35,431 nt of DNA from the IMG/VR virus record IMGVR_UViG_3300018065_000012; one strand, written 5' to 3'. Under the pieces are notes generated by a model that searched no databases, was not told the DNA's origin, and was given only the letters and a program-made list of their open reading frames with translations. Numbering within the stretch: the stretch's first letter is position 1; every line of letters begins with the position of its first letter. The position numbers and the translations under genes were made by a program. This DNA comes from a virus. Lineage: Duplodnaviria; Heunggongvirae; Uroviricota; Caudoviricetes. Shown here piece by piece: positions 9,672-32,378 of the stretch.

Positions 9672-9717
9672 AATAGAGAAGTGTGTGCTTTGTCCTCTGC
9701 TAACTTTGGAGGAAATT

Positions 9718-12658: not shown

Positions 12659-12687
12659 ACAAAATTGTAAATCTCTTTCTGGTTTTT

Positions 12688-12722
12688 GCCCCTGTTGCCG
12701 GTGGTAGCAGGGGTATTTTCTT
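12688..12722 (+). terminator. Rho-independent terminator after rsr.
   Basis: GCCCCTG, a 13-nt loop, CAGGGGT, then ATTTTCTTT. Confidence 0.6.
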
Positions 12723-12739
12723 TAGACAGGGAGCGTGCA

Positions 12740-12976
12740 ATGAAAATGAAATGTCCGGGATGTGGTTCAGAAGAAAGTTTCACGATCAGCGCACATGCAA
12801 TAGTCAAAATTGATTCAGAGGGCAATGAAGGTTTTTCAGAGGATTTGAATTGGAGCGATGACGACGATTGTGAATGTGATGAGTGCAATTTTGCAGCCAA
12901 TGTCGGGAACTTCAAACAAACCGCCGAACGAGTACAAAAAGAAAATTATCATCCACAACAGTTAACTCTTTTCTAA
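12740..12976 (+). CDS. Small zinc-ribbon protein.
   Basis: A GGGAG RBS is present. Two Cys pairs (CPGCG and CECDECNF) flank an acidic stretch. Confidence 0.5.
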   Translation: MKMKCPGCGSEESFTISAHAIVKIDSEGNEGFSEDLNWSDDDDCECDECNFAANVGNFKQTAERVQKENYHPQQLTLF

Positions 12977-12998
12977 ATCAATTCTGAGGGAGGAAACA

Positions 12999-13872: not shown

Positions 13873-13988
13873 CTTTGGAGGCTTTTGTAAATACCTACAT
13901 AAAAAGTAATTACAGCAAAACAAAATCTCAACATGCATAATTCTTTTATATTTACACGTTTTATAGACAGAGTGTATGGAATCAACTG

Positions 13989-15799: not shown

Positions 15800-16174
15800 A
15801 TGAAAATCAGTAAAAAGAAACCAAAAAATATGACGCCGGGTCAAATCAATAAGGAACTGGACAAGCTGAGCAAAGAATCGTCTAAATTGATGGACGACTT
15901 CATTGAGGCTGGTCGAGGTCGTGAGCGTCCTTCAGAGTATTTGAAGAAGTCGGACCCGCTGTCGTCGAAGGCACGAGCTTTATACGATAGGAAGACAGAT
16001 TTGCAGTTTGAAATCAAAAGAAGATATGGGCCAAACGCTCCTTCTCGTTTGCCCCTAAGACGAGGAAACGCAATGGACAATCGCAGAGTGGCTGCTGAGT
16101 TGGTGAAATTGGCGAAGACTCTGGTATCGAATCCAGAAGTTAAAGCGGCTGGTCGTGATTGTAAGTGTGAGTAA
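15800..16174 (+). CDS. Small basic protein with a C-terminal VAAELVKLAK motif.
   Basis: ATG follows 1 nt after the upstream stop. The C-terminus MDNRRVAAELVKLAKTLV matches the N-termini of the 23949 and 24379 products. Confidence 0.5.
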   Translation: MKISKKKPKNMTPGQINKELDKLSKESSKLMDDFIEAGRGRERPSEYLKKSDPLSSKARALYDRKTDLQFEIKRRYGPNAPSRLPLRRGNAMDNRRVAAELVKLAKTLVSNPEVKAAGRDCKCE

Positions 16175-16233
16175 TGGTTTATGCAACATGACAAGGCAAC
16201 CGAAGGGTTGTCTTGTTTTTTGAATGGTGAGTT

Positions 16234-19200
16234 ATGGCGGTTGACCCTTACTATGAGATGGCGGTCTTTCGAGACGCGGATTTAGAGGCTCTCCGCGCAA
16301 ATCTTGTATCTGCGTATGGGTTCCAATGTCTCACTGCGGGAGTTACAAGATACGATTATATGCGGCGAAACCCGTTGAGTGATACGGGAAATGTTGCCAT
16401 TTCAAGCGATAGGCCAAGCAATTTTTCCGGCTACAGTTTAGATTTCAGCACTGACTATGTAAGCATTACGGATGCTGCTCAAGATGGTTTGGACATCACC
16501 GGCGCAATGACGATAAGTTGTTGGGCGAAGATGGACTCAAATACATCCAGCGCTTACATTGTTGGAAAGTATGATTCTGGTAGTAGCAATTGCAGTTATT
16601 TGCTTTACAAGAGGTACAGTGGCGGCACGTATACTTTCAGATTTTATGTATCGGTTGATGGAATAGGCGCAAACACCGTCTGGGTTGAATCAGCTTCAGT
16701 TTCAATAAATACATGGTATCATATCGTTTGTCGTTACATACCAAGCACGGAGATTTCGATTTTCGTGAATGGTACTGAATACGTAGAAACAACGGGCATT
16801 CCTGCTTCCTTGTACAATGGCAGTGCTGATTTCATAGTTGGCGCTGGGAAAAGTAGCGGCACTCCTACTGCATATTTTGATGGGCACGTTTTTGCGCTTT
16901 ACATTTGGAACACGGATTTGTCCGATACTTTGGTGGACAAGCTTTACACGAACCCAAACCCATTGATACGTCCTGATGTCCGGCAGATGTGGCTTTTTAG
17001 AGGCTTTTGGCTTGACAGTACGATCGAGGCGTATGCTGATTATCTCCAAGCTGGATGGAGAATGGAAGAGGGTGGTGGTCGGCGCACAGATAGTGGTGGT
17101 GGTTATCTTTACTTGGATGTTAAATCAGGAAGCGTTGGGCAGACGACGGGGAAAAAAGGCTATGCGGCTTTGTTCAATGGAGGTTCAGCAAACCATTTGT
17201 ATAAAGCTTCTACGGCGTATCTCAAATTTGCAACAGACCCATTCACATTTTCATTCTGGATAAAGGCTGCGCATCCCGGTGGGGCTTTGTGGATTGGCGG
17301 AACGTATGCGTCAGGAAACGGAGAATTCCTTTACCTTCTGAACACTGATGGAACGATACGTTTTCGGGTTTATACTGACGGTGTTTCATATGTTGAATTT
17401 ACTTCAACAGATGCGATTAAAGATGATGATTGGTCGCATGTCGTTCTTCGCTTTACGCCCAGTACAGAGATGGCAATTTTCATTGATGGCGAAAAAAGCA
17501 TATACACAACAAGTATCCCAGCTACAATTTTTTCTGGGACTGCCGATTTCACAATTGGTGGTTATAGCACCGCCGCTTCTTTGGTTGGTGCAATGGATGA
17601 ATTTTTTATTTGGAGAGCTGCTTTATCTGACGCTGCTTGTGAGGCTCTTTACAACGACGGCTCTGGCGTAAGCTTTGAAAGGCCATACCGTTTTGGTGAT
17701 GCTACAATTCAACAACATGACCAATATTTTGACCGTGGCTATAAATTGGACGTACAAAATGGTTGGCGGCATGACCCGATTAGTTACAATTTCTTGTATA
17801 GGGGAGCTGCCAACCTTGAACCGGGAAGCGCTGTTGGATTAGATGACTATGCTGTTCAAACAAACCGCACAGCAGGCAGTGTTCGTTTGTATCAACCGGG
17901 ATATTCTTATGCTGATGGTCAAAGCAAAGTAACTATATCATGTTGGTTCAAGCAAGATGAAATAGGTTATAATGGTCTTATCGTTGGTGATGTTGGCACT
18001 GGAACTGTAGAAAAATGTAGTGTTGGAATCGATTCTACAAACAAACTTCGAGTGCGCATTTATGATAACGCGCAAAGAAATTTTCAATCAGTAAGTACGC
18101 TTACGGATACCGCAAGTTACCATCATTTAGTCCTTGCGGTTGACACTGAAAACCAAACTGTAAAGGCTTGGATTGATAATACGCTTTGGATTGATGACAC
18201 GGGAACCCTTTCGGGAAGTTCAATCACTACAGATACCAATGAAGTTCTTGTCGGCAGTGGTTATTTTGTTGGCGGTTTCTACTACAAGACGCAAGAAATC
18301 GATGAAATCTATATTTGGCATGAGGCTTTCACAGCTACTGAAGTTTCGGCGCTTTACAATTCTGGCGTAGGCAAATTCATTTTGCGTTTTGAAGGGCAAC
18401 AAGAATCTCAACTATCCATTAGCAGGGATATAAAAACGTTTCACCTTTCGGCTTTGGACGCGGAACGGGATTGGGTGCGTGAACTTCGCGAGAGCCAATT
18501 AATCGCTGAGCGCGGGATTTACAGGACAATTGAATCGTATCTTATTTCAGAACGGGATTGGTTGCGTAGCCTTCGTGAAAGTCAATTAATTGCTGAACGT
18601 GACATCTTCAAATACGTAGAATCAGAAATAATTGCTGATCGGTATATTCGCGCTATGAAGACTTCTGAAAACATTTTTGAGAGAGAATACCTTGTGCTAC
18701 AACAGTCTTTATTGAATGCGGAACGGAACATTTACACTTGGCACTATTCCGATGTTGATTCTGACAGAGCATATCGTGTTTTCAAGCCTTCTGACCTTGA
18801 TATGCTTCGTAGTTGGCGACAATTTATTGAAGTTGGTTCTGGGCCGGGAGCGGGTTTTGCCCGTCATCATTTTACTGTTTATGGGGCAGACGTATACATT
18901 GACGGTGTTTGGAAAGGCTTCATCGATTTTGATGATGGCGAAGATACGCTTCCAAATATTCCGGTTCCTGATGGAGATCACACGGTTGAAATAAGAATGT
19001 CAAAGTGGTTTTGGCCTCAATGTAGAACGACAAAACGAAGTTATTTTACTGTAACTGGTGGAGAGCTACAACCAGCACAAGTAATTCCGGCTGTCGCAAA
19101 TCTGGCAGCGGAAATTGTTCGTGCAAATGTTGTGCTAACGTGGAATGCGGATTGGAACGACGAGTTTACAGAACCGAGCTTTACTGGTTTTGGATTGTGG

Positions 19201-19431
19201 ACAAGTCCCACAACTCCTGTGAACATTTCCGGCGCACCGCTGACAACAATTTCCTACAGCGGGACAGAAGCTTTGTATCAAACTTCATATTCAGGCGTAG
19301 CAGCGGATCATTATGCTGCAATCGCAGGATACTTAGGTTCAGAACGCGGGACGTCTCAAGAAGTTTTTGTTGATTTCTGGACCACTGCGCCAATTTCTCC
19401 TCTCAATCAGCGTTTGGATGAAATGGAATAA
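16234..19431 (+). CDS. Large fibre / receptor-binding-like protein with three LamG (concanavalin A-like lectin) domains and a coiled-coil repeat region.
   Basis: Three repeats carry the LamG signature (ISCWAKMD...FDGHVFALYIWN; FSFWIKAAHPGG...MDEFFIWR; ISCWFKQDE...IDEIYIWH). A tandem ERDW.R.LRESQLIAER peptide repeat follows. The ORF is 1065 aa. Confidence 0.7.
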   Translation: MAVDPYYEMAVFRDADLEALRANLVSAYGFQCLTAGVTRYDYMRRNPLSDTGNVAISSDRPSNFSGYSLDFSTDYVSITDAAQDGLDITGAMTISCWAKMDSNTSSAYIVGKYDSGSSNCSYLLYKRYSGGTYTFRFYVSVDGIGANTVWVESASVSINTWYHIVCRYIPSTEISIFVNGTEYVETTGIPASLYNGSADFIVGAGKSSGTPTAYFDGHVFALYIWNTDLSDTLVDKLYTNPNPLIRPDVRQMWLFRGFWLDSTIEAYADYLQAGWRMEEGGGRRTDSGGGYLYLDVKSGSVGQTTGKKGYAALFNGGSANHLYKASTAYLKFATDPFTFSFWIKAAHPGGALWIGGTYASGNGEFLYLLNTDGTIRFRVYTDGVSYVEFTSTDAIKDDDWSHVVLRFTPSTEMAIFIDGEKSIYTTSIPATIFSGTADFTIGGYSTAASLVGAMDEFFIWRAALSDAACEALYNDGSGVSFERPYRFGDATIQQHDQYFDRGYKLDVQNGWRHDPISYNFLYRGAANLEPGSAVGLDDYAVQTNRTAGSVRLYQPGYSYADGQSKVTISCWFKQDEIGYNGLIVGDVGTGTVEKCSVGIDSTNKLRVRIYDNAQRNFQSVSTLTDTASYHHLVLAVDTENQTVKAWIDNTLWIDDTGTLSGSSITTDTNEVLVGSGYFVGGFYYKTQEIDEIYIWHEAFTATEVSALYNSGVGKFILRFEGQQESQLSISRDIKTFHLSALDAERDWVRELRESQLIAERGIYRTIESYLISERDWLRSLRESQLIAERDIFKYVESEIIADRYIRAMKTSENIFEREYLVLQQSLLNAERNIYTWHYSDVDSDRAYRVFKPSDLDMLRSWRQFIEVGSGPGAGFARHHFTVYGADVYIDGVWKGFIDFDDGEDTLPNIPVPDGDHTVEIRMSKWFWPQCRTTKRSYFTVTGGELQPAQVIPAVANLAAEIVRANVVLTWNADWNDEFTEPSFTGFGLWTSPTTPVNISGAPLTTISYSGTEALYQTSYSGVAADHYAAIAGYLGSERGTSQEVFVDFWTTAPISPLNQRLDEME
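18463..18636 (+). repeat. Tandem 87-bp (29-aa) repeat, two units plus degenerate further copies, inside the fibre gene.
   Basis: GAACGGGATTGG(G/T)TGCGT...CAATTAAT(C/T)GCTGA(G/A)CG recurs at 18463 and 18550, encoding ERDWVRELRESQLIAERGIY and ERDWLRSLRESQLIAERDIF. Confidence 0.6.
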
Positions 19432-19455
19432 TTATGTTAAAAACTTCTTTCCCGA

Positions 19456-19464
19456 TTGTATAAT
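19456..19464 (+). promoter_or_regulatory. Extended -10 promoter TTGTATAAT.
   Basis: It sits in an intergenic gap 44 nt upstream of the ATG at 19509. Confidence 0.45.
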
Positions 19465-19508
19465 AAACTGTGAACAACAACCGTCAACTTAAAAGTGAGG
19501 TTGAAAAG

Positions 19509-20264
19509 ATGAAATTGCTTCCTGAAAAAGTTTCCTATCGTGCCGTAATTGAATTGGTTGTAATTTTAGGGTTGAGTTTTGCCGTTGTTTTGATGTATTT
19601 TGGGAGCAGCAAAGGCGTCGAGACGTTCAAAAAGAAAATCATCAAAGACGAAAAATTCATGACAGAAGAGGGCACTTTGTATCTTGTTTACGAAGCAAAG
19701 GTTGAAAAGAAAACAAAAACATTTCAGGTAATGTCTCCTCTTCGGGTTATACAAGTTACTCAAGAAGTGCCAGTCAAAGGCGATGAAAGAATCAAAGTTG
19801 TTGAGCGTACTCAAGAAGTACCAGTCAAAGGCGACGAAAGAATCAAAGTTGTTGATCGTGTAATTGAAAAACCTGTTAAAACTAAGATTCCAAAAGTGAG
19901 AAGTTCTGATTTTGGTTTGAATCCTGATGGAAAGCCAGCAGATACAAAGGATGTTAAAAGTTCGCTAAAGCGCATTGAACAGATAAAAATTTTCACAGTT
20001 GGGATGCTCAACTCAAGAGAAGATGGAAAACAGCAGGCAAAGGAAATTTTAGCATTGAACGAGAAAATTGTATTTCTTGCGGAAACTTCTGAAAATTTAG
20101 GGGAATTCAGAAGGGGACTTCCGCCAGTGCTTCCAAAATTGTTCAAAATCTTGATCGAGGGCTACCGCGATTCGATGAACACAAATGATGGGGTGCTTGA
20201 GTTTGTCGAAGGGGTAATGGCCGCTTGCGGAAAAGCACTGGAATCAACTCCCGAATTACAATAG
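19509..20264 (+). CDS. Membrane-anchored protein with an N-terminal TM helix and an internal tandem repeat.
   Basis: A GTGAGG RBS is present. The hydrophobic segment is AVIELVVILGLSFAVVLMYF. QEVPVKGDERIKVV is duplicated. The ORF-track start at 19470 is too close to the promoter. Confidence 0.5.
   Translation: MKLLPEKVSYRAVIELVVILGLSFAVVLMYFGSSKGVETFKKKIIKDEKFMTEEGTLYLVYEAKVEKKTKTFQVMSPLRVIQVTQEVPVKGDERIKVVERTQEVPVKGDERIKVVDRVIEKPVKTKIPKVRSSDFGLNPDGKPADTKDVKSSLKRIEQIKIFTVGMLNSREDGKQQAKEILALNEKIVFLAETSENLGEFRRGLPPVLPKLFKILIEGYRDSMNTNDGVLEFVEGVMAACGKALESTPELQ
19758..19859 (+). repeat. Two tandem 51-bp repeats at about 94% identity.
   Basis: ACTCAAGAAGT(G/A)CCAGTCAAAGGCGA(T/C)GAAAGAATCAAAGTTGTTGA(G/T)CGT occurs twice. 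Confidence 0.7.
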
Positions 20265-20300
20265 CAATTCTTTGTACCACACATAGTTGCGACTTAAACG

Positions 20301-20336
20301 TTATGCGCTCTCAAAAGGAGCGCATAAATTTTTTAT
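20301..20336 (+). terminator. Rho-independent terminator.
   Basis: TTATGCGCTC, loop TCAAAAG, GAGCGCATAA, followed by ATTTTTT. Confidence 0.7.
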
Positions 20337-20340
20337 ATTT

Positions 20341-20350
20341 TTGTATATAG
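20341..20350 (+). promoter_or_regulatory. Possible variant promoter TTGTATATAG.
   Basis: It resembles the recurring TTGTATAAT motif and lies just after a terminator. The -10 is degenerate. Confidence 0.3.
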
Positions 20351-20528
20351 TAGAGCGTTGTGTGTTGAACGCTTTGGGGTGGAAGGAGGAATATCGAGAG
20401 AGCGCAACGCGACTGGGAATCTCGGAGTCATAACGCAATTATGGCGCAAAGATTGCCCTGTTTCAAAGCACAATTATTTTATATTTGGCAGTTATGTAGA
20501 AGTCACCTTTGAAAAACAGGGCACAACT

Positions 20529-21080
20529 ATGTCAGAACGCACAGAAGAGTTTAATTCCCTTGATCGTAAGATTGGCGAACTTGTTGGGCTGTTTTCTTCG
20601 ATTCCTGATCAAATCAATCTCATTTTTGAGAAGCTTGATAAGGAGAAAGAAAATAGGACTGAACAAGATCAAGCCCTTTTGCTTGAGTTGCGCTCCGCTG
20701 CTGAAGAATTGAAACGCATTCTTGAACGGGTCTCTGAACTTGAAACAAGAACAAAAGAAATCAGATGCGACGAACATCTAAAAGCAATCGACAAATTGAA
20801 AAAAGATGTGTCTGTGACGGCGAGTGTTGCAAAAGACCTTATACGCATTTTGGAAATAAAAAACGGACGGTCAAAATGGGTTGACGAAATTGACAAATCA
20901 ATCAAAGGCAATTATCAAGACTTGTCTCAAAAAATTGGAAGGCTCAAAACGAAAGTTGAGGAATTATCGAAAACAAGAAAAGACATCAAGACCATATTCA
21001 AATGGATAGGGGAGAAGGTTGCAACTATCGCAATCACCCTTTTAATCGCATGGCTGGCTCTTAAATTCGGGGTCAAGTAA
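20529..21080 (+). CDS. Coiled-coil protein with a C-terminal transmembrane anchor.
   Basis: Heptad-rich sequence (ELKRILERVSELETRTKEI...) precedes the C-terminal IAITLLIAWLALKFGV. The start is uncertain; the ORF is open back to 20358. Confidence 0.45.
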   Translation: MSERTEEFNSLDRKIGELVGLFSSIPDQINLIFEKLDKEKENRTEQDQALLLELRSAAEELKRILERVSELETRTKEIRCDEHLKAIDKLKKDVSVTASVAKDLIRILEIKNGRSKWVDEIDKSIKGNYQDLSQKIGRLKTKVEELSKTRKDIKTIFKWIGEKVATIAITLLIAWLALKFGVK

Positions 21081-21521
21081 ATGTGCAAAGCGTTTCTAAT
21101 AGGCGAATTTGAAAAGGGGACTCGCGAGGTTTTCCGGAACGAGCAACTGATCGAATGCAAAACGGGGTTAGAAGCGAGTCACTTGATAAAAGGTTTCCGG
21201 CCTGACTTGCTTGTTATCAAGGATGAATTGTCCGATGGTATTGCTACGAAGTTTGTTCGCGCTTGGCAGAGTGAAAGAAAATTGAATCGCGAAATAACCA
21301 AGGTTGTAATCTTGGGAACAGATATTGAAGAATCTCCCGAAATCAATGCCCTCGCTTTATCTGACGAAAGCGAAAGGGTTGAGATGCTGGAAAAGATTTT
21401 GGAAGAAATTAAGCGGCCACCTACGGATTCTGGAATAATGTATTTTATTAACAAGCTGGACGCTGTAAAAGTTCATCTTCAACGTACGAATGAGGAATTA
21501 CAAAAAGGACTTGAAAGTTAA
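21081..21521 (+). CDS. Receiver (REC/CheY-like) domain protein, possibly degenerate.
   Basis: KAFLIGEF...RPDLLVIKDELSDGIATKFVR...KVVILGTD resembles the beta-alpha REC pattern (DLvllDi.mp.mdG). Confidence 0.35.
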   Translation: MCKAFLIGEFEKGTREVFRNEQLIECKTGLEASHLIKGFRPDLLVIKDELSDGIATKFVRAWQSERKLNREITKVVILGTDIEESPEINALALSDESERVEMLEKILEEIKRPPTDSGIMYFINKLDAVKVHLQRTNEELQKGLES

Positions 21522-21532
21522 GGAGGGATACG

Positions 21533-21892
21533 ATGTCAGGAAAGTGGCAATATAGCCGTTGGGTTTGGAATATCGCACGATCGATGTTGACCAATCCCCC
21601 GTCAGCATCTGAAGTGGCTGCTACAGAAACATACATCAAAGTCTTTTGGGACGCTGGCGCACAAACAGGAACTCGTACATGGTTGAAAACGCCTTTCAAC
21701 AAGAAGGCTGTTTGGCAACCATCTGATTACATTGGTGATACTGATGTTGAACCAAGCCATGTTGATGTAGAAATGCTTGCCGTCGTTGCTCGTGATTTGA
21801 AGAAACATACACAATTCACTTCTACTGAACAAACTGCTTGTGACACGTTGATTTCAGCGACTGGAAATCGTCGCTATGGAGAAAACGTTTAA
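21533..21892 (+). CDS. Hypothetical protein (119 aa).
   Basis: A strong AGGAGGG RBS is present. Confidence 0.45.
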   Translation: MSGKWQYSRWVWNIARSMLTNPPSASEVAATETYIKVFWDAGAQTGTRTWLKTPFNKKAVWQPSDYIGDTDVEPSHVDVEMLAVVARDLKKHTQFTSTEQTACDTLISATGNRRYGENV

Positions 21893-21944
21893 TCAAGGTT
21901 TTGTTGCCTTGGCAGATAGATGAACATGATATAGGAGAGTTGAA

Positions 21945-22670
21945 ATGGCTAAGAAACAGACTGAAAAATGGGTTATGAAGCGTGGTATGCATCTTGGTTT
22001 CATAAAGCATACCGTCAAGATGGGAACGGTCGTTGAGCATCTTCCCGAAGAAGGGAAGCTGCGTATTGACGGGTTGTTGTTTGAAAGTACGAAGGATTTA
22101 CAGATTTTGATAAACAACAAGTGGGTAGAACCTTTCTCGAAGAAAGCAGCTCAAGTGCTTTCTCAAAAAGGTTCAGTGAAGGAGGAGGAAAGGGAACAGC
22201 GTATTGCAGGAATGAAAGAGACTCCAAAAGAAATGCCTGTTGTTCAATCGGATGCGGATGATCATGAAACTATCGACATCAGGCATACGATCAAACAGAA
22301 ACCAGAACCGCGAAAAAAAGACGATTCGATGAAAGTGATTCGCGGCGACGAAACAGCGGAAGAGCGGATTGCAAGGCTTCAAAGCGAAAAGACGCCTATG
22401 CCTATCGTCCAAGATGATAGTCTTGGATCAAGTGGCGTAAGTTTGAACGCCGGACAGGTTCAAACCAGAACCGCTGAAGACCATGAAAAACTTCGACAAG
22501 AAGGAAAAGAGAAAGCAGAAAAAGGTTTCACGGATAAACGCTTAAAAGGAGACAAAGCGTCTGAAGCAAAGCCCCGGAAGAAAGCAAAGAAAACGCGGAA
22601 GAAAGCAAGGAAGAAAAGCGAATTGTCAAGTTCAAAGAAACTCAAGAAACTTCCGCCAGTAAGCTTTTGA
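21945..22670 (+). CDS. Hypothetical protein with a Lys/Arg-rich C-terminal tail.
   Basis: A GGAGAG RBS is present. The C-terminus is PRKKAKKTRKKARKK. Confidence 0.5.
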   Translation: MAKKQTEKWVMKRGMHLGFIKHTVKMGTVVEHLPEEGKLRIDGLLFESTKDLQILINNKWVEPFSKKAAQVLSQKGSVKEEEREQRIAGMKETPKEMPVVQSDADDHETIDIRHTIKQKPEPRKKDDSMKVIRGDETAEERIARLQSEKTPMPIVQDDSLGSSGVSLNAGQVQTRTAEDHEKLRQEGKEKAEKGFTDKRLKGDKASEAKPRKKAKKTRKKARKKSELSSSKKLKKLPPVSF

Positions 22671-22681
22671 AAGGGTGAGTA

Positions 22682-22969
22682 ATGATTTTTCAATATCGTT
22701 GTGATAATTGCAATAAAATCGTTGAACGCGATTTTCGCATCGGCAAAGCAAAAAAGACCGTAAAGTGTGACACCTGTGAAAATGATTGTAAGCGCCATTA
22801 TGGGAAAGTTGACTTTGTTTTGAAAGGTTCGTGGGGCGGTTGGCCAAGTAAGAGTAAAAAGTTGAACCGCGAGATGACCAAGAAAAACAAAGACGCTGAG
22901 CGCCGGATGTGGAAAGAGCGCGGTGGCACGGAAGCAAGCGCAAACCCATTAATTGCGCAGGATCAATAG
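22682..22969 (+). CDS. FmdB-like zinc-ribbon protein.
   Basis: MIFQYRCDNCNK...VKCDTCEND fits the FmdB family (Y.Y.C..C...CxxC). Confidence 0.45.
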   Translation: MIFQYRCDNCNKIVERDFRIGKAKKTVKCDTCENDCKRHYGKVDFVLKGSWGGWPSKSKKLNREMTKKNKDAERRMWKERGGTEASANPLIAQDQ

Positions 22970-22981
22970 GAGTTTGTCATT

Positions 22982-23242
22982 ATGGATGAAAAAGAAAAGT
23001 TCATAATGTATCGCACCAGTGATATTTATTTTGCAAGCTTCCTTTGTGCGATTGATATATTCCTTGAATCAACAGTTAACGAAAAGAATGAAGCAGGTGG
23101 GAAAAAGGTGATCTTTGTTTTCAAAGTTCCGAAGAAGGATTTGGAACGATTGAAAGCAGGATTTTTTGGCGGCACTGCAACCGTGAAAGTTTCCAGATAC
23201 GTTCAAGCGATACGAAACCTCAAAAGCATGTGTTTCGTGTAG
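22982..23242 (+). CDS. Hypothetical protein (86 aa).
   Basis: An AGGAG RBS is present. Confidence 0.4.
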   Translation: MDEKEKFIMYRTSDIYFASFLCAIDIFLESTVNEKNEAGGKKVIFVFKVPKKDLERLKAGFFGGTATVKVSRYVQAIRNLKSMCFV

Positions 23243-23266
23243 TAATTGCTTATCATAAAGAGGGTT

Positions 23267-23917
23267 ATGACTAAAATCTGTTCTCACTGCAAAGTTTTGA
23301 AATCCATTGACTGCTTTGGGAAGAACAAAGGCTACAAAGATGGAATTCATGGTTGGTGTAAAGAATGTGCAAGGAAAAACAGAAAAGAGTCATACAAGCG
23401 AAATATAGAAAGTGAAAAGCAAAAGGCACTTGCGCTTCACCATAAACGTCAACAAAATGAACCTGAATATCGAGAACGTAGAAAAGCTTATCAAAAGGAG
23501 TACAATCAAGACTATATGAAGCGTCCTGAGACTCGCAAGAAGATGAGACGGTGGCATCAGAATTATATGAGTAATCACCGCAACAGAATCTCAAGACGCA
23601 TCAGTTTTCAAATTTGGTTTTCATTACGAGATAAGCTGGATAAAACAAATAGAAAGAATCGTCGTCATTGGGAAGATTTGGTAGACTTTAGCCTCGATCA
23701 ATTGGTAGCTCACTTAGAATCGCAATTTCATGGTGGGATGACTTGGGATAATTACGGCGGTGATATGGGTTGGCAAATTGATCATAAAACGCCTCGCACG
23801 TGGTTTGAGTTTGAATCGGAGAAAGATGAAGGATTCAAACAATGTTGGAAGCTGAAAAATTTACAACCAATGTGGTTGTCAGATAATGCTTCCAAAGGAA
23901 ACAGGCGTGCTGGTTAG
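23267..23917 (+). CDS. HNH endonuclease with an N-terminal Cys4 zinc-binding region.
   Basis: An AGAGGG RBS is present. The N-terminus has CSHC...WCKEC. The C-terminus QIDHKTPRTW...NLQPMWLSDNASKGN is an HNH motif (DH..P...N......N..K). Confidence 0.6.
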   Translation: MTKICSHCKVLKSIDCFGKNKGYKDGIHGWCKECARKNRKESYKRNIESEKQKALALHHKRQQNEPEYRERRKAYQKEYNQDYMKRPETRKKMRRWHQNYMSNHRNRISRRISFQIWFSLRDKLDKTNRKNRRHWEDLVDFSLDQLVAHLESQFHGGMTWDNYGGDMGWQIDHKTPRTWFEFESEKDEGFKQCWKLKNLQPMWLSDNASKGNRRAG

Positions 23918-23948
23918 CGTGTGTTTTGTATGATAAAGGGAAGAAATA

Positions 23949-24368
23949 ATGGACAAGCGCAAAGTAGCTGCTGAGTTGGTAAAGGTAGCCAGATTGCTAA
24001 CGGGTCAGGATAAGAAGGAAAAGGCTCAAGAACTGGCAACAGCACTCAAGCGTGTCAGGGGAATCAAAAACGGACAAGTTGATGATTTCTCAGGCAGCGA
24101 GTTTGTTCTGTTCGCAAATGGTGATGCTTCCAAATCTTCCAAAGGCGCACAGAAGAAGGCGTTTAATTGGGATGTTGCACCAAGGAAAGTGGCGGATGAA
24201 ATCAAGAAGCTGATTAAGAAGACAGACGGTGTGATGTTAAATTGGATGGATACGCCGAAGGCTGTTTATGAAGAGCAAGCAAAAGACCCACGGACGGGAA
24301 AGCGTGAGCGTTTGAATATTGGCTTTGACAATGACTATATCAAGTTCGAGGTCTACGTTTCAGGTTAA
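23949..24368 (+). CDS. Small protein with an N-terminal MDKRKVAAELVKVARLL motif.
   Basis: An RBS is present. The first 32 nt are identical to the start of the next gene. Confidence 0.5.
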   Translation: MDKRKVAAELVKVARLLTGQDKKEKAQELATALKRVRGIKNGQVDDFSGSEFVLFANGDASKSSKGAQKKAFNWDVAPRKVADEIKKLIKKTDGVMLNWMDTPKAVYEEQAKDPRTGKRERLNIGFDNDYIKFEVYVSG

Positions 24369-24378
24369 GGGGAATACA

Positions 24379-24726
24379 ATGGACAAGCGCAAAGTAGCTG
24401 CTGAGTTGGTGAAGATTGCTAAACGTCTGACTGCGGCAAGAATGAAAATAAAGCCAGAGGATTATAAGATACTGAAAAGTTTTCTTGATAAGGCAGTGAG
24501 AAAGATTGGTAAGGACAAGCTTGCAGAATATAAAGAGAAACTGAAAACAAACCCGAAAGTACGTGATGCGGATATGCGTTTTCGTTGGGACTTGCTTCAT
24601 GCTTCTCGTATTAAGATTGGCGATGGAAAAGGAATGAGGGGCGATGTTGAATTATACGGTTACATGAATGACAATCAGATCGATACGGCACTGAAAACAT
24701 ACATCAAATCAAAGAAATTGGATTGA
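24379..24726 (+). CDS. Small protein, tandem paralog at its N-terminus (MDKRKVAAELVKIAKRL).
   Basis: An AAGGGGAA RBS is present. The ATG at 24379 falls inside a longer ORF-track ORF. Confidence 0.5.
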   Translation: MDKRKVAAELVKIAKRLTAARMKIKPEDYKILKSFLDKAVRKIGKDKLAEYKEKLKTNPKVRDADMRFRWDLLHASRIKIGDGKGMRGDVELYGYMNDNQIDTALKTYIKSKKLD

Positions 24727-24741
24727 CTAAGGAAGTGACAT

Positions 24742-25497
24742 ATGGCAGTATTTCCCGGCTCGTATGTTCCAATTGGCGCATCTTCCAATGCGCGCGTTAA
24801 TGAAATTGTCGACAACATGTTGACCCCACATTTGTTGAACTTTCGGCAAATTAGCGTTTACGACGAACAAGCAAAGCGAGTGTCGGCAACTGTTTTCAAA
24901 CTAACGTATCCGAATTGGAATGATGCGTTTTCTGTCGTTGTTCATCTGAATGAACTTCAAATAGTAACACCCGCAAGCATCGACTATATCTTAGGAACAG
25001 TTACGCTTGCGGCTGCTACAACGGATCTGGATAGGGTCACTGTAACTTACAACATTGATTGGTTTCCTGTTGGTGTGCTTGCTGGGTTCATTTATCAAGC
25101 TATTGATGTGATTAACAACTCCGGCGTATCATCTGCTACGAATTACACAATTGCAGATGCGCCTCAGAATTGGGATGGTGTAATTACCGATCTTGTTGTT
25201 GCAATGTGTATGGAAAAGCTTTTGCTTGACTATGACCTTTGGTATGGTCGGGTCATCTTTGCAATTGGAGCAAATGAGCTTAACGAAGGTGGCGGAGATG
25301 TTGTTGGCGCGATTGAGACGATCAAGGGCAACGCCGATGAACGTGCAAAGACAGCTTTGGATAATGAGAAATTCAAGATCGGAAATTTGCTTGCTCCGCC
25401 AACGCAAACATACTATGCGGCAGTACGTGGAATAGGAAGAACAGGAGCGCACAATTACGGCAAGTTGCGGGGATGGAAGTCGAACAAATACCTCTGA
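24742..25497 (+). CDS. Hypothetical protein, possibly structural (251 aa).
   Basis: An AAGGAAG RBS is present. Confidence 0.5.
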   Translation: MAVFPGSYVPIGASSNARVNEIVDNMLTPHLLNFRQISVYDEQAKRVSATVFKLTYPNWNDAFSVVVHLNELQIVTPASIDYILGTVTLAAATTDLDRVTVTYNIDWFPVGVLAGFIYQAIDVINNSGVSSATNYTIADAPQNWDGVITDLVVAMCMEKLLLDYDLWYGRVIFAIGANELNEGGGDVVGAIETIKGNADERAKTALDNEKFKIGNLLAPPTQTYYAAVRGIGRTGAHNYGKLRGWKSNKYL

Positions 25498-25554
25498 TTG
25501 AGAATTACCGTTTGACGAGATGATGAAATTACTCAGTGTTTAAGGAGAAAAAAA

Positions 25555-25815
25555 ATGACTCGCGAACAACGTATCAAAGTTGCAAAGCGTTTGGTAAGGC
25601 TTGCAAAAGAGATGAACGCACAAGGGCCACAAAGAATCAGGCGTCGAGAAACAGGAATGGGTCCATTGATTACCAAGCTGATCGACGAGACGGGTGGAGA
25701 TGTTGCAAAAATGCTTACTGCGGTAATTATGGCAGGACAAAAGGCAGGCAAAATTCCTTCTGGCGGCACGGCAAAAATGATTACCAAATTACAGCAGGCT
25801 TTGAAAGCTATCTAA
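25555..25815 (+). CDS. Small protein with an N-terminal IKVAKRLVRLAKEM motif.
   Basis: A strong AGGAGAAAAAAA RBS is present. Confidence 0.45.
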   Translation: MTREQRIKVAKRLVRLAKEMNAQGPQRIRRRETGMGPLITKLIDETGGDVAKMLTAVIMAGQKAGKIPSGGTAKMITKLQQALKAI

Positions 25816-25826
25816 AGGGAATTGAA

Positions 25827-26162
25827 ATGGACGATAACAGCATCTCAAAAGAATTGGCAAATATCAGTCAAATTATTGATTCCGCACGCTTGCTTGAACT
25901 TGTTCGAAAAGAAGTTGGGACAGCGATGCAGGGCAAGCAGGCAATGGTTATTGGCGGAGAACTTTCTGATAAGCCAAATTATGATGTCGTTGTTATCCAT
26001 CACTCAGGCAAAGATGGCAATGGTGTGATCACACGTCGTTTGCGAGACGCTGTTGAAGATATTGAGATTACAAATCTTGACAACATGGTTGATAACATGC
26101 TTGGCATACGTTACAAACAGGAAAAGACGCCGGATGTATCTAAAACCAACAGCGCTGGTTGA
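25827..26162 (+). CDS. Hypothetical protein (111 aa).
   Basis: An AAGGGAA RBS is present, and the ATG is in frame with the 25536 ORF. Confidence 0.4.
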   Translation: MDDNSISKELANISQIIDSARLLELVRKEVGTAMQGKQAMVIGGELSDKPNYDVVVIHHSGKDGNGVITRRLRDAVEDIEITNLDNMVDNMLGIRYKQEKTPDVSKTNSAG

Positions 26163-27066
26163 TGGCGATAAAGTTGCTATCATTACGCCTTCTTCTCCGA
26201 TTACGTCGACTAAGGCAATTCAGTCTGCGTTGCCTGTCTTTGTAGAATGTGGCTTGGAGCCTGTTCTTGGTCCCAATTTGAGAAATTTACGTTCTGACGC
26301 TTGGAATTCTGCTCCTGTTGATCAACGTATTCATGAAATAGATTGGGCCTTTAGCGACAATACTATTTCTGCCGTATGTGTGAGTGAAGGCGGTTATTCT
26401 GCGATAGAACTGTTACCTTATATCCCTTACGACTTGATTCGCAAAACGCGTAAACCATTCATGGGGATGTCTGATATTACAGTTATCAACAATGCAATTT
26501 TGCGTTGTTCCGGGCTGGTAAACTTTTGCGGCCCAAATATTCGTATTCGCGAGAAAAAGCCCCTTGATGAGCAAAATCTTAAACACGCACTTATGCTACT
26601 CAAGCTTGATTCTGAATGGCACAATGATCCTTTTTCAGATTGTTCATTACCGCGTTGCGTCTGCGGTGGAATTGTTCGGGGAACTTCAATTGGCGGAAAC
26701 TTGACTTTGTTCACGGCGTTGATAGGAACGCCATTTTTGCCAGAATTGGAAGGCGCAATTTTATTTTTGGAAGATACTCAGGCAGGTGGTTACGAAGTTT
26801 CAGCTTGCTTGAATCAGCTTGAATTGGCTGGGGTTTTTGAAAAAGTTGGCGGCGTTGTTTTTGGAGAATTTGTCGAACGGCCAGAACGACAGGATTCAGA
26901 TGTTTCTGTTGAGGACGTAGTTGTTCGATTCTTTGAAGATAAATTGCCTTGCGTTTTCGGAATGAACTTCAGTCATGGCGAGACGGTTGCGAACGTTCCG
27001 CTTGGGGTGGAAACTTCTTTGGACGCTGAGAGCTGTATGGTTATGTTTGGAAATCCCTTTTCATGA
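26134..27066 (+). CDS. LD-carboxypeptidase (peptidase S66; LdcA / MccF-like).
   Basis: LVDGDKVAIITPSS is present. The Ser motif is GMSDITVINNAIL, the Glu motif is ILFLEDTQAGGYEV and the His motif is NFSHGETVANVPLG. The start is taken at the internal Met after an AGGAAAAG RBS. Confidence 0.72.
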   Translation: MYLKPTALVDGDKVAIITPSSPITSTKAIQSALPVFVECGLEPVLGPNLRNLRSDAWNSAPVDQRIHEIDWAFSDNTISAVCVSEGGYSAIELLPYIPYDLIRKTRKPFMGMSDITVINNAILRCSGLVNFCGPNIRIREKKPLDEQNLKHALMLLKLDSEWHNDPFSDCSLPRCVCGGIVRGTSIGGNLTLFTALIGTPFLPELEGAILFLEDTQAGGYEVSACLNQLELAGVFEKVGGVVFGEFVERPERQDSDVSVEDVVVRFFEDKLPCVFGMNFSHGETVANVPLGVETSLDAESCMVMFGNPFS

Positions 27067-27446
27067 AACCAAAGCTGAAAAAAACCGTTCTTGCTATCAA
27101 AAGCGTAAAGGTAAAGACCTCAAAGGGAAAAGAATTTTCCATTGAATTTACTCTTTACAAAAAAGCAGGCTATATCAGTGGCGTTTGTAATTGGAAGTTG
27201 GACGGGGAAGAGAATTCAGATCAACGGACGTTTGGTCGTGTTGGGAACGCTAACGTAAAAGAGTTGATCGCTGATTGGGTTAATGAAATATTGCAACAGG
27301 TAGGAACAGAAACCGATGTTGAAAATGGTTGGGATGCTTCTGGAGAAATCAAGTCGCTTGAAAAAGTTTTACCAGCAGAGTTGAAACCGACTAAGCAGAT
27401 AGCTAAAGAACTTGTTAAGATTGCGAGAGAAATATGCCAGATGTAA
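27063..27446 (+). CDS. Small protein with a C-terminal KELVKIAREI motif.
   Basis: There is ATGA overlap with the upstream gene. Confidence 0.45.
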   Translation: MKPKLKKTVLAIKSVKVKTSKGKEFSIEFTLYKKAGYISGVCNWKLDGEENSDQRTFGRVGNANVKELIADWVNEILQQVGTETDVENGWDASGEIKSLEKVLPAELKPTKQIAKELVKIAREICQM

Positions 27447-27919
27447 GTCCAACAACAGGTGAAGCCTATTACAGCGGCACTTGGGAAGACGTGCGCAATC
27501 TTTGTAAGGTTTTGAAGATTGGCAGTGGGCGGCTCGCATTGATAGACCAAAAGCTTGTTGAGTTTTATCAGGAACAGGTTGATCGTGAAATCGATGGAGA
27601 ACTTGAACAATATTATTATGTCCCATTACGTTCGTACAATATGTATCGCCCGGTTGATTCAACGACAATTTCCGTATTTCCGGGAGCGATACGTTCATTA
27701 GCTCGGCATTGGGCTGCTGGCGCTCTATTGATGAGCGAGTTTCAAGACCTTGATCCAAACGCAAATGAAGGTGCCACGACTTATATTACGGAGAGCAAAC
27801 AAAAGCTTTATGATTTTATGCGCTTTCAAAAACGTATTCCCGGACAAACTTGGAAACACAATTTGCGAACGATGCCTCCAACAATGGCACCGGGGTTCAA
27901 CCCAGAACCGGAATGGTAA
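27434..27919 (+). CDS. Hypothetical protein (161 aa).
   Basis: A GAGAGAAA RBS is present, and the gene overlaps the end of the upstream gene. Confidence 0.45.
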   Translation: MPDVSPTTGEAYYSGTWEDVRNLCKVLKIGSGRLALIDQKLVEFYQEQVDREIDGELEQYYYVPLRSYNMYRPVDSTTISVFPGAIRSLARHWAAGALLMSEFQDLDPNANEGATTYITESKQKLYDFMRFQKRIPGQTWKHNLRTMPPTMAPGFNPEPEW

Positions 27920-27920
27920 T

Positions 27921-29069
27921 ATGAGACGTTGTGCTCAAAAGGAAGAATTGTCGCCAGCTGAAAAAGCAAAGCGCGTGAAAAAGCGCACTGATGGCGTAAA
28001 GAATATTGCTGATAATTTGCAGAGTTTACGACGTAAATTGAATCAAGAATTGAACTCTGGTGATGAGAAAGAACGTTTGGTCGCTCTTGTTATTAGCGTA
28101 ATGGACAAAACCGCTGAACGCGTAGGAAATGAAGAGTCAGCGGAAAACAATCACCTTGGCGTTACAGGATTCAAGAAAAAGAATATTTCCGTGGAAGGCA
28201 ATACAGTAAAGCTTTCCTATACGGGAAAATCCGGCGTCAAGCATGAAAAGGATTTCACGGACAAAAAACTTGCACCGATGATTTCTGATTTGTTGAAACA
28301 GACAAAAGGCGAAGACAGTTTTGTGTTCGAAACGCCTGATGGATTCAAAATTAAATCGGATCAGGTTACGCGATTTCTGAAGCCATTTGACATTAAGCCA
28401 AAAGATATTCGCGGCTATGCAGCAAACCGATACATGATTCGCTCTTTGAAGCGTCGTGGAATTGAACCTGATGAGAAGGAACGCAAAAAACGGTTTTTGG
28501 AAACGCTCAAAGATGTTGCTGAGCGGGTTGGTCACACGCCATCAATGCTCCGGAATTCCTATTTGCTTCCCGATCTGGAAGACAAATATATCAAGCACGG
28601 AAAGGTGGTTGAATTGGATCGCAAGGCAAGTATTGATGAAAAAGCTATTATTGCCCGTTTGATGGCTCCACCGGGAATAGGAATGAACCAAAATGAGTTG
28701 GGTGGCGAAGCTCGTCCTAAAGATCATGTCGTGGATAACACTGTTGAAGTTCGTATCATAACGTTTGATGAATTACGGGATATGATGGATAGGTTGACAA
28801 AATCAGCTTGCTTATATTATGCTGGAATAGAAGACGTCTTGAAAAAATACTCGCAGAAAAATAAGGCTTGGTATTATGATAAGAAGAGTCAAACTTTCAC
28901 TGCGGATGCTTCTGATTTAGGCCGTGGAACTTGGAAAGACCCTTGGAATCGTTCGATCAGAGACAGTTGGATTAGCCCAATTCGAGACAGAGAGGGCGAC
29001 ATCCAGAAATGGACAGGGCATACAACGGTCAAGGGTGAAAAGATAAATCTAACGATTTTCAATGACTGA
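27921..29069 (+). CDS. Type IB DNA topoisomerase (poxvirus/bacterial TopIB family).
   Basis: The N-domain reads DKTAERVGNEESAENNHLGVTGFKKKNI...YTGKSGVKHEKDF. The C-domain RVGHTPSMLRNSYLLP contains the catalytic-Tyr motif (compare TPAV.RKSYIHP). Confidence 0.62.
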   Translation: MRRCAQKEELSPAEKAKRVKKRTDGVKNIADNLQSLRRKLNQELNSGDEKERLVALVISVMDKTAERVGNEESAENNHLGVTGFKKKNISVEGNTVKLSYTGKSGVKHEKDFTDKKLAPMISDLLKQTKGEDSFVFETPDGFKIKSDQVTRFLKPFDIKPKDIRGYAANRYMIRSLKRRGIEPDEKERKKRFLETLKDVAERVGHTPSMLRNSYLLPDLEDKYIKHGKVVELDRKASIDEKAIIARLMAPPGIGMNQNELGGEARPKDHVVDNTVEVRIITFDELRDMMDRLTKSACLYYAGIEDVLKKYSQKNKAWYYDKKSQTFTADASDLGRGTWKDPWNRSIRDSWISPIRDREGDIQKWTGHTTVKGEKINLTIFND

Positions 29070-29080
29070 GGAGAAGAGAA

Positions 29081-29311
29081 ATGAATGAAGTCGTTGGGGA
29101 ATTAGTAAAAATTGCGAAAATTTTACTTGCTGCCGAAGGCGACAAATGCGGTCCAAAAGGTTGTATCCGAAAAATTAAGGGTGGTTATGGAATCATGTCT
29201 GGAAAAACGGGCAAACTTTGGGGAACAGAAGACGGCGGAAAGGCAAGAGTTTACAAAACGAAAGAAATCGCTGAGGATGTTTTGAAACGCTACCATGGCT
29301 GGGGATTTTAA
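29081..29311 (+). CDS. Small protein with an N-terminal VGELVKIAKILL motif.
   Basis: A strong AGGAGAAGAGAA RBS is present. Confidence 0.45.
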   Translation: MNEVVGELVKIAKILLAAEGDKCGPKGCIRKIKGGYGIMSGKTGKLWGTEDGGKARVYKTKEIAEDVLKRYHGWGF

Positions 29312-29914: not shown

Positions 29915-29961
29915 CGTTGCATAATTTTTTTATATTCGCCTATTAAGTGGAGAGCTTGTAC

Positions 29962-31262: not shown

Positions 31263-32375
31263 ATGGCAATGGGATACATGGGATTTGCAAAATTTTATCT
31301 TCAGTCATCTGGAGGTTCTCCAAGCAGCCCGCTCTTGCTGCTTGCGACTGGAGCCAGCGTCAACCTGACCCTTGAACCGATCATGTCAACAGCAGTCTGG
31401 GGCGCTGGTTGGTATAATGCGGCGTCGACATCCCACTACGCGGATGGCGCGTTGCGTTATGAAGGTTCAATTGATATCGAGCTTCAGGGTACGAATGACC
31501 TTTGGAATTTCGTACGTGACTGGGGCATCGAATATCGTGCCTTCCCGATGAGTGCTGATATCAGCCCAGACGGACGGCGTGTTTATTCATTCTACACGGC
31601 AGGTGATTATACTCTGGGAAGTCACGCAGAGAATTCATTCACCAATGCGGGAATGTATTGCACGTCTCTTGGTTTCAGCACATCAGAAGGCTCTTTTGTC
31701 ACTGTGTCTTGCGGTGCTGTAGGTTTGGAACGCGTCTTTGCGTTGACCGGCAAGAAGTATATTGAAAACCGTGCCGGTATTACAACGTGCGATGAGTTGA
31801 TGACGACGTTCCCATTGAATCCATCTTCAGCAAATATTTCTCCTATTCCGTTCTGGCGCACCAATGCAAACTTGCTTGACCTTGGCGTTACTTCATATCC
31901 AACGTACCCGACATATACTCCGTTTGTAAGCGGTACCGTGTTCCAAGCTGACCTTGAGACAATTGAATGGTCGGTAGATGTTACAAACAACCAAGTCATT
32001 CTGTATACGTGCGATGGAACGCGCGAAGCTACAGCTGTATTGATGGGTACAATGGATGTGTCTGGTTCAGTGACGCTGTTCTCTGTAGACGGTGTGTTTG
32101 ACCCGATTCTTGGTCCGACTGGAACAGAAGGAACGGAAGACAACCCATACTTGTATGCTCAACGTACAATTTTCCGCGTTGAGATTCAGCGTTCACCGGC
32201 TTCAGCAAACCCAGTTTATATTGAGTTGCCTGCCGTTCTTGTCACGGCTGATGACTATGGTTTGAAGGGGCAGAACGATGTAACCAGTCGTGGTTTCACG
32301 ATTCAGGGCTTGGGTGGCCGCTGTCAGAGCGGTGGAACGATTTATCCTCCATGCATGATGTCACAAGCGACGTAA
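31263..32375 (+). CDS. Hypothetical structural protein (370 aa), paralogous to the next gene.
   Basis: An AGGAGG RBS is present. The N-terminus MAMGYMGFA and the TSLGFSTSEGSFVTVS...LER segment resemble MAVGYEGAA and TSVNFNAAEGSAVTGS...IER of the 32379 product. Confidence 0.55.
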   Translation: MAMGYMGFAKFYLQSSGGSPSSPLLLLATGASVNLTLEPIMSTAVWGAGWYNAASTSHYADGALRYEGSIDIELQGTNDLWNFVRDWGIEYRAFPMSADISPDGRRVYSFYTAGDYTLGSHAENSFTNAGMYCTSLGFSTSEGSFVTVSCGAVGLERVFALTGKKYIENRAGITTCDELMTTFPLNPSSANISPIPFWRTNANLLDLGVTSYPTYPTYTPFVSGTVFQADLETIEWSVDVTNNQVILYTCDGTREATAVLMGTMDVSGSVTLFSVDGVFDPILGPTGTEGTEDNPYLYAQRTIFRVEIQRSPASANPVYIELPAVLVTADDYGLKGQNDVTSRGFTIQGLGGRCQSGGTIYPPCMMSQAT

Positions 32376-32378
32376 ATA

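Follow-up and report, generated by a model that had tools for sequence, protein, structure and literature searches.

A short conserved peptide recurs on unrelated proteins of an uncultured huge phage and its relatives and may act as a docking tag

Six genes of an uncultured huge phage share a short peptide

We analysed a 35,431-nucleotide stretch of viral DNA (IMG/VR record IMGVR_UViG_3300018065_000012; hereafter the window) in which six small genes encode otherwise unrelated proteins that share one short peptide, referred to below as the tag. The window is the end of a 338,319-bp metagenomic contig (ENA ERZ27256780, k141_931436), and its source is therefore an uncultured huge phage; that contig encodes a protein identical to g31263, a tail-tube-like protein of the window with PF18906 in its homologs. 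Among cultured phages, represented by 50,697 deposited phage records, neither the window DNA nor its tube protein has a match. All window genes lie on the + strand. An earlier note on this DNA had listed six copies of the tag, and all six lie where it had placed them, on real + strand open reading frames (ORFs). The carriers, with the score of each copy in a profile scan described below, and the one neighbouring enzyme gene to which we return are as follows:

15800..16174, + strand: g15800 (124 amino acids), a 97-residue N-terminal part fused in frame to a Met-led tag and a 14-residue tail
16073-16129, + strand: tag copy 1, MDNRRVAAELVKLAKTLVS, inside g15800 (33.7 bits)
23949..24368, + strand: g23949 (139 amino acids), an ORFan cargo; tag MDKRKVAAELVKVARLLTG at residues 1-19, 23949-24005 (33.0 bits)
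24379..24726, + strand: g24379 (115 amino acids); tag MDKRKVAAELVKIAKRLTAAR at residues 1-21, 24379-24441 (33.8 bits)
25555..25815, + strand: g25555 (86 amino acids); tag MTREQRIKVAKRLVRLAKEMNA at residues 1-22, 25555-25620 (25.8 bits)
27063..27446, + strand: g27063 (127 amino acids), ending in tag KQIAKELVKIAREICQM and the stop codon; tag at 27393-27443 (26.1 bits)
29081..29311, + strand: g29081 (76 amino acids); tag MNEVVGELVKIAKILLAA at residues 1-18, 29081-29134 (19.9 bits)
27921..29069, + strand: topoisomerase IB, untagged here (PF01028, 1.4e-22)

A regular expression for the core of the tag, [LIVM][LIVMA][KR][LIVM]A[KR], matched six times in the 43 annotated window proteins, whereas 5000 residue shuffles gave 0.21 matches on average and never more than 4. 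All six matches are terminal, where 0.05 would be expected. A hidden Markov model (HMM) built from 148 instances recovered these six copies and no others, at 19.9-33.8 bits; the best-scoring of the remaining ORFs, both strands included, reached 3.9 bits. The shuffles and this gap in score rule out a chance origin of the six copies. One more candidate, a degenerate stretch at the beginning of g25827 (MDDNSISKELANISQII), is not supported as a seventh copy, scoring 0 bits in the HMM scan. The ORF listed at 25536-26162 around that position is a composite: it begins by overlapping g25555 in a different frame, and the true gene is 25827-26162 (111 amino acids), with a homolog in the related locus L024 (7370-7687).

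Outside the tag, the six proteins have nothing recognisable in common. Stripped of the motif, they give no BLAST match among themselves, and none belongs to a Pfam or NCBIfam family. The family libraries used here and below were Pfam-A 2025, PHROGs v4, NCBIfam 20 and PDB sequences; the Pfam scan covered 18 window ORFs and the PHROGs scan 16, each genome being available only in part. For loci L108-L113 we used the precomputed Pfam assignments of called genes. Genes near the carriers with a recognisable product encode an HNH endonuclease, an LD-carboxypeptidase, the topoisomerase IB, a LamG fibre-like protein and paralogs of the tube protein.

Four copies are N-terminal, and the two that had been described as C-terminal are correctly positioned, with a qualification for each. 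The copy in g15800 stands 14 residues from the end of the protein and has its own in-frame ATG (16073), with GAGGA 7 nucleotides upstream, like the purine-rich sites before other tagged genes. It is 68-78% identical in nucleotide sequence to the starts of g23949 and g24379, upstream region included; the value of 78% is for the copy at 24370-24429 and takes in the ribosome-binding site. Because of the internal ATG and the GAGGA ahead of it, g15800 appears to be an in-frame fusion in which a tag-led gene, reduced to 14 residues of cargo, follows a 97-residue protein. The gene is absent from L024. A strong terminator-like hairpin (16190-16217; 12-bp stem and T-tail) directly follows g15800, the last gene before it, and marks the end of a transcription unit beginning near 13935. 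In g27063, the protein ends 4 residues past the helix, and its homologs in L023 and L024 run on past the equivalent helix into a further domain, so this copy is terminal by truncation.

Of the N-terminal carriers, g23949 has a sole homolog in 5.8 billion proteins, 97% identical. The tag of g25555 is a variant, IKVAKRLVRLAKEM, from a family that lacks both glutamates of the consensus given below; a syntenic ortholog in L023 (L023_1483) is 70% identical, and both proteins keep the motif. The cargo of g29081 (GDKCGPKGCIRK..GKTGKLW..) is seen again in P0170, a protein found in the library search described next, as its third tagged module.

The tag is found in related metagenomic phages

The relatives compared with the window comprise three IMG/VR loci and 80 metagenome loci around homologs of the tube protein, in which every stop-to-stop ORF on both strands was scanned with the motif HMM. 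On the coding strand there were 63 matches of at least 8 bits, 51 of them of at least 12 bits; on the opposite strand of the same loci no match reached 8 bits. These matches reduce to 46 distinct carriers, and the 43 of sufficient length fall into 36 BLAST clusters once their first 22 residues are removed. The tag was found in 14 of the 33 loci of at least 10 kb. It is kept across loci whose tube proteins are only ~43-50% identical and is missing from those with the most distant tube proteins.

A profile made from the six window copies alone was then compared with 1.84 billion representative proteins. It returned 91 proteins at E<=1e-3 (best 5.5e-14), ~70 of them matched at residues 1-20, with strikingly uniform N-termini of the form MD[KN]xK[VI]A[KSG]ELVK[LI]AKEL[TV][AG]. 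Altogether, the tag heads more than 100 unrelated proteins in related metagenomic phages. The earlier idea that a terminal helix is reused on otherwise unrelated proteins is strongly supported by these library proteins, by the relatives and orthologs, and by the addition of tags to existing domains described below. The note had named a lack of conservation in homologs as grounds for rejecting its observation, and the homologs compared here do not bear that out.

Most copies begin at residues 1-8. Genuine C-terminal copies occur in a GNAT enzyme of L113, in L113 5818-6108 and in L094, and others are internal: 25 of the 91 library proteins hold at least two copies, with two to four copies per protein, each ahead of a module. 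A Met lies just upstream of 16 of the 37 internal copies, which suggests that the multi-copy proteins arose by fusion of adjacent tag-led genes. The density of copies varies, from 6 in the 35 kb of the window to ~11 in 11 kb of L113 and ~20 in 14 kb of L112 (a 166-kb contig), and in some 10-14-kb islands most genes are tagged. At L108, one of the library matches belongs to a series of seven tag-led genes that follow one another without interruption (9211-12043). Directly upstream of these seven genes (L108 12-8716; JGI Ga0255798_10000897) is an array of ~35 head-to-tail paralogs from a Cys-rich family of 60-85 amino acids (MLKKELCKKCWN...CP...PPSKCPYYLE).

Searches elsewhere gave no further carriers. 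In tblastn searches of the 50,697 phage records we found no cultured relative of the tag-bearing clade and no match for the tag, alone or together with the 'KYLKEHPDADKSKH' module; the tag joined to a zinc ribbon gave only chance-level matches there (E ~0.2-0.4). Across 185,579 cellular species genomes (596 Gb), 73 matches to the pattern were found, no more than a rough chance estimate predicts, and none was confirmed. The exact pattern AKELVKxAKEL matched once in IMG/VR, probably irrelevantly. No Pfam or NCBIfam family matched across the tag, in PHROGs the sole match, of g25555 to phrog_14921, was weak and spanned 19 residues (E = 0.033), and the best hit of a profile search of PDB sequences had E = 0.56, with no solved structure containing the tag. 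The tag as a SAP domain, a Rho_N/HeH-like domain or any other Pfam, PHROG or NCBIfam domain was considered and dropped for want of a significant match. The full-text literature searched describes neither the tag nor the second motif introduced below.

Conservation and codon use of the tag

The tag comprises 16-19 residues (for example MDKRKVAKELVKLAKELTAG) and is far more conserved than the remainder of its carriers. Aligning 46 copies gave the consensus M-[DN]-[RN]-x-[RK]-[VI]-A-x-E-L-[VL]-[KR]-[LIV]-A-[KR]-E-L-[VLT]-[AGS], in which A4 is kept in 44 of 46 copies, E6 in 36, L7 in 45, A11 in all 46 and L14 in 34. In most copies a Met stands 2-5 residues ahead of the helical part and small residues follow it.

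The nucleotides behind these residues are far less constant. The invariant alanines use all four codons about equally and the leucines five codons, and within one genome the third bases at identical residues agree in only 52-65% of cases. This mixing of synonymous codons and divergence of third bases points to purifying selection on the peptide, as opposed to selection on DNA or RNA or recent copying. An exact 17-nucleotide search of IMG/VR found only chance-level matches unrelated to the motif.

A different origin, in which the shared stretch is a cassette boundary or the trace of recent duplication or gene conversion at the level of DNA and has no function as a peptide, would account for several local features. 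As the earlier note had stated, g23949 and g24379 share 32 identical nucleotides at their starts, beyond which identity falls to 27% and the sequences are unrelated; the 60-nucleotide similarity among three of the window copies includes the ribosome-binding site; and genes replace one another like cassettes in a variable slot. Recombinational shuffling, which that note had also offered, therefore holds for the tandem pair, a local exception. It fails in general, since all synonymous codons are used at the invariant residues, 35-48% of third positions differ within genomes, and the motif persists across loci with tube proteins as divergent as those above. A DNA or RNA element in place of a peptide is ruled out by the fully mixed synonymous codons, and from the sequences compared the DNA-level account appears largely refuted as a general explanation; we regard it as very improbable.

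The consensus also contains two potential processing sites, A-x-E triplets at positions 4-6 in 36 of the 46 copies and at positions 11-13 in 22. Giant-phage prohead proteases cleave at AXE/SXE (PMC5694885), and internal tags head each module, so A4-x-E6 and A11-x-E13 could be sites at which a protease of the T4 gp21 or phiKZ gp175 type frees the modules of a fusion. Cleavage would require conservation of ~3 residues, whereas the tag conserves 16; both glutamates are missing from the g25555 family, and no protease gene was seen in the part of the genomes at hand. As the whole explanation of the tag this seems improbable, and it is compatible with a docking role rather than an alternative to one.

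Tags are joined to unrelated cargos

The clearest case of modularity is g24379. Its residues 22-111 match phrog_9817, a complete domain whose profile starts after the motif, and most homologs of this cargo begin directly at MKI[TK]xEDY and are untagged. In g24379 and two relatives, a tag of 21-30 residues stands in front, and g24379 retains the ancestral Met internally (..LTAAR-MKIKPEDY..). Because the homologs start at the very Met that g24379 has kept, the tag was, on this sequence comparison, demonstrably added to a pre-existing protein.

The topoisomerase IB, an enzyme of eukaryotic type that is unusual for a phage to encode, provides a second case: its orthologs in L023 and L024 have a tag immediately ahead of the catalytic domain and the window protein lacks one, so that here, too, the tag behaves as a module. 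The backbones of the window, L023 and L024 are syntenic (83% and 68% identity on g24742), with the tagged genes in different slots. In the variable slot between the topoisomerase IB gene and g29336, the window has g29081, L023 a fused 109-residue module and L024 two other genes, giving four unrelated tagged cargos.

Tagged cargos that can be recognised are topoisomerase IB, an ADP-ribosyltransferase, numerous zinc ribbons and a GNAT acetyltransferase tagged at its C-terminus; all others are ORFans. The ADP-ribosyltransferase, carrier C32 of L062 (410 amino acids), consists of a tag, an exoenzyme domain (PF03496, 5.3e-13), a second tag and a small domain, the last also present in four further tagged proteins (C28, C37, C38 and C43).

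Two modules recur directly after the tag. One is a second conserved peptide, xEFPTQ[DE]AxDKYLKEHPDADKSKHxVKK, which matches no family and is found in many proteins (P0122, P0123, P0126, P0145, P0195, P0208 and C32 of L062), with up to three repeats in P0195. The other is a zinc-ribbon module, ADTFKCPECGTKVLEQTGYCVKCKKKV, found in P0125, P0127, P0132, P0135, P0150, P0151, P0155, P0160 and P0209 and in L108 10591 and 11354.

The range of cargos bears on whether the tag might be the leader of a ribosomally synthesised and post-translationally modified peptide (RiPP), read by the products of the radical-SAM/SPASM and glycosyltransferase genes at 2525-7415, with the variable parts as core peptides. 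In favour of this, the window does encode a radical SAM/SPASM protein, and several of the tagged products (the g15800 tail, g29081 and the zinc-ribbon modules) are short and bear cysteines. The cargos include folded enzymes of 250-400 amino acids and a confidently folded domain of 90 amino acids, though, and C-terminal and internal copies exist. Moreover, most tagged loci have no maturase nearby, position 16 is Ala in 18, Gly in 12 and Ser in 8 of the 46 copies with no consistent double-glycine site, and no C39 peptidase or ABC transporter was seen in the loci examined. We consider a RiPP leader the least credible of the explanations weighed here.

Predicted structure of the tag

An AlphaFold2 model of g24379, built from a 12-sequence alignment, has a helix at residues 3-21 (predicted local distance difference test, pLDDT, 70-84), a break at 22-25 and a domain at pLDDT ~95; the model has no fold match in the PDB. 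A single-sequence model of g23949 has a helix at residues 3-18 at a confidence too low to be usable (pLDDT 42). The hydrophobic positions of the tag (3-4, 7-8, 10-11 and 14-15) would make up a single broad stripe centred on Ala-Leu-Ala-Leu, with Lys, Arg and Glu on the opposite face. The hydrophobic moment of the g29081 copy is 0.40, and that of the other five window copies 0.54-0.77. The tag is thus predicted to be an amphipathic alpha-helix of about four turns, made of two heptads, (V-A-x-E-L-V-K)(L-A-K-E-L-T/V-A/G). Small residues are obligatory at positions one heptad apart, which speaks for close packing against a protein surface and would be less expected of a helix that binds lipid.

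The same heptad periodicity, with Ala and Leu at a and d and hydrophobic residues at e and g, would also suit a short coiled coil through which carriers dimerise, oligomerise or bundle with one another and need no separate receptor. Multi-copy proteins could then act as cross-links, and a mixed bundle would explain why all copies within a genome are alike. Such self-association nevertheless seems unlikely to us: by established coiled-coil principles, two heptads with Ala at 'a' would be too short, and their core too small, for a coiled coil that is stable by itself, the invariant small residues suggest a tight fit into the groove of a partner, and the ensemble is conserved across very distant genomes.

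Alternatively, the helix might lie in the plane of the host membrane, or bind the nucleoid, and send its carriers to membrane or DNA. Its hydrophobic moment is high, its net charge is 0 to +4, and it occurs at either terminus, as do the membrane-targeting helices of MinD and FtsA. Membrane helices tolerate almost any hydrophobic residue, whereas two alanines and one leucine of the tag are near-invariant and Glu is conserved at two positions; mean hydrophobicity is also low, near zero or below it in five copies and no higher than 0.35 in the sixth, g29081. We give this alternative little credence.

Proposed function as a docking tag

The tag exists in phage contigs as a conserved, modular, multi-copy element that is selected as a peptide and restricted to the coding strand. 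From these properties we infer that it docks to a common partner. A conserved helix followed by a linker, found on unrelated cargos, at either terminus, in many copies, with cassette-like turnover and in phage contigs only, would be expected of a portable address or docking signal for one such partner, and we put this reading at slightly less than an even chance. The earlier note had already suggested a targeting, packaging or docking signal, a suggestion that the anatomy of the tag would suit.

In the mechanism that we propose, one conserved receptor protein of the phage (or of its host) would recognise the helix, and a short run of small residues would tether the helix to unrelated cargo domains. 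Many fast-evolving accessory proteins and a few enzymes could in this way be brought together at one site. That site would most likely be the assembling virion, from which cargos would be delivered into the next host, possibly after processing at the embedded A-x-E sites; the main alternative destination would be another assembly or compartment built by the phage. Stated in full, a single helix, whether N-terminal, C-terminal or between modules, would mark dozens of proteins per genome for one receptor, and the marked proteins would most plausibly be virion-bound, injected effectors. We offer this fuller version tentatively, and the virion as destination is speculative. It is favoured by the recognisable cargo enzymes, ADP-ribosyltransferase, topoisomerase IB and GNAT, all of which could act on host targets.

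Several observations weigh against it. C-terminal and internal copies do not suit a strictly N-terminal, cleaved propeptide, and the window carriers lie in a tail-like region, among PF18906 tube paralogs, and not beside head genes. The dozens of tagged genes per genome are far above the handful in T4, and by inspection the tag has no sequence similarity to the T4 capsid-targeting sequence (CTS). In addition, small tagged genes are packed into dense arrays at L108 and L112, an arrangement reminiscent of early host-takeover regions in large phages; this would point to a hub inside the cell rather than to packaging.

Whatever the destination, the strength of conservation (E values to 5.5e-14 from six ~20-residue copies against 1.84 billion proteins) points to an important interaction. 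Most huge-phage genes are ORFans without a functional handle, and the tag supplies one by grouping more than 100 unrelated proteins into a single functional class that would share a route and a partner. Structure prediction or pull-down could now identify that partner, and from the tag one can predict which accessory proteins would travel together. If the carriers are virion-bound, the principle of the T4 CTS would extend to a whole uncultured clade on a much larger scale, and the tag would offer phage engineering a compact, sequence-defined signal for loading foreign cargo. The 'injectome' of uncultured phages could then be read from sequence.

Other features of the window

Three paralogous tail-tube-like genes, g31263, g32379 and g34624, occupy 31263-33278 and 34624-35409, and their homologs carry PF18906; g32379 is ~25% identical to g31263. 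In several relatives (L023 9222, L029, L033 and L040) a tagged gene is inserted directly after the first tube gene.

An 18-nucleotide intergenic element, GCAYAATTnTTTTATATT, occurs four times on the + strand, against 0.06 expected, and each copy is followed ~12 nucleotides on by TAGA or TGGA:

13935-13952, + strand: 18-nucleotide element
20322-20339, + strand: 18-nucleotide element, overlapping a strong terminator-like hairpin at 20301-20327
20468-20485, + strand: 18-nucleotide element
29919-29936, + strand: 18-nucleotide element

The element is probably a phage-specific promoter. A set of auxiliary genes at 2525-7415 and 10778-13523 encodes a triple fusion of family 2 glycosyltransferases (GT2; 1002 amino acids), the radical SAM/SPASM protein, a GT1-like protein, a Ro60/TROVE-vWA RNA-binding protein (626 amino acids) and a nucleoside 2-deoxyribosyltransferase-like protein. 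Within g19470, two tandem 51-nucleotide repeats (19757-19858; 94% identical) encode a repeated unit of 17 amino acids, TQEVPVKGDERIKVVER.

Comparison with known systems

A terminal targeting peptide on unrelated cargos is a known principle; the resources searched describe neither this tag nor the clade that bears it, the scale of its use or its freedom of position. A distant analogy is found in A-kinase anchoring proteins (AKAPs), many unrelated proteins whose helices dock into the dimerisation/docking domain of the RII subunit of protein kinase A, with a hydrophobic face and obligatory small residues that fit the groove of a hub. AKAP helices differ from the tag in the spacing of their hydrophobic residues (the tag has doublets at 3-4, 7-8, 10-11 and 14-15) and are eukaryotic, without homology to it.

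For extracellular contractile injection systems (eCIS), among them the Photorhabdus virulence cassette (PVC), Jiang in 2022 and Kreitz in 2023 are said to have reported that unrelated toxins share an N-terminal loading region. Just as eCIS payloads are encoded beside structural genes for contractile-tail-like particles, the window carriers are encoded among tail-tube paralogs. The eCIS signals, in contrast, are ~50 residues long, disordered and poorly conserved, whereas the tag is a short, sharply conserved predicted helix. The lumen of a phage tail is normally filled by the tape measure protein.

Encapsulins and bacterial microcompartments (BMCs) likewise load unrelated cargos through a short terminal peptide on a flexible linker, and the microcompartment peptide is an amphipathic helix of ~18 residues that docks to a shell protein from either terminus. 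The tag has this anatomy, with a predicted amphipathic helix, a break, a linker and unrelated cargo, at either terminus. It differs in its consensus, its tailed-phage context and its much higher copy number per genome, and no BMC-H/P or encapsulin shell gene was seen in the window Pfam and PHROGs scans or the Pfam assignments of L108-L113, which cover these genomes in part.

The head propeptides of giant phages (phiKZ, SPN3US and 201phi2-1) resemble the tag in coming from large phages and in their A/S/G-x-E motif, of which the tag has two in the form A-x-E. They are also alike in that paralogs keep a conserved N-terminus: SPN3US gp53 and gp54 are identical over 15 N-terminal residues, including an AXE protease motif (AXE-12; PMC5694885). 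These propeptides are mostly longer than 100 residues and specific to a family, unlike a universal helix on dozens of unrelated proteins, and the tag clade is unrelated to the cultured giant phages, having no match in the 50,697 phage records.

The closest precedent is the CTS of T4, whose sequence is approximately MKTYQEFIAE. It is strictly N-terminal and is removed at L/I-x-E, whereas the tag is also found C-terminally and internally, on far more carriers per genome, and the packaging of those carriers is as yet only proposed. In T4, the internal proteins IPI-III and the ADP-ribosyltransferase Alt, which is packaged by means of its N-terminal CTS (PMC5694885), share only a 10-20-residue N-terminal peptide that directs them to the prohead (PMC3012670, PMC5694885). 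As with the tag, a terminal peptide of 10-20 residues is thus the sole common part of diverse, fast-evolving accessory proteins, an ADP-ribosyltransferase among them, the genes of both systems lie in polymorphic slots, and the T4 CTS is portable to foreign proteins (PMC3012670, PMC5694885).

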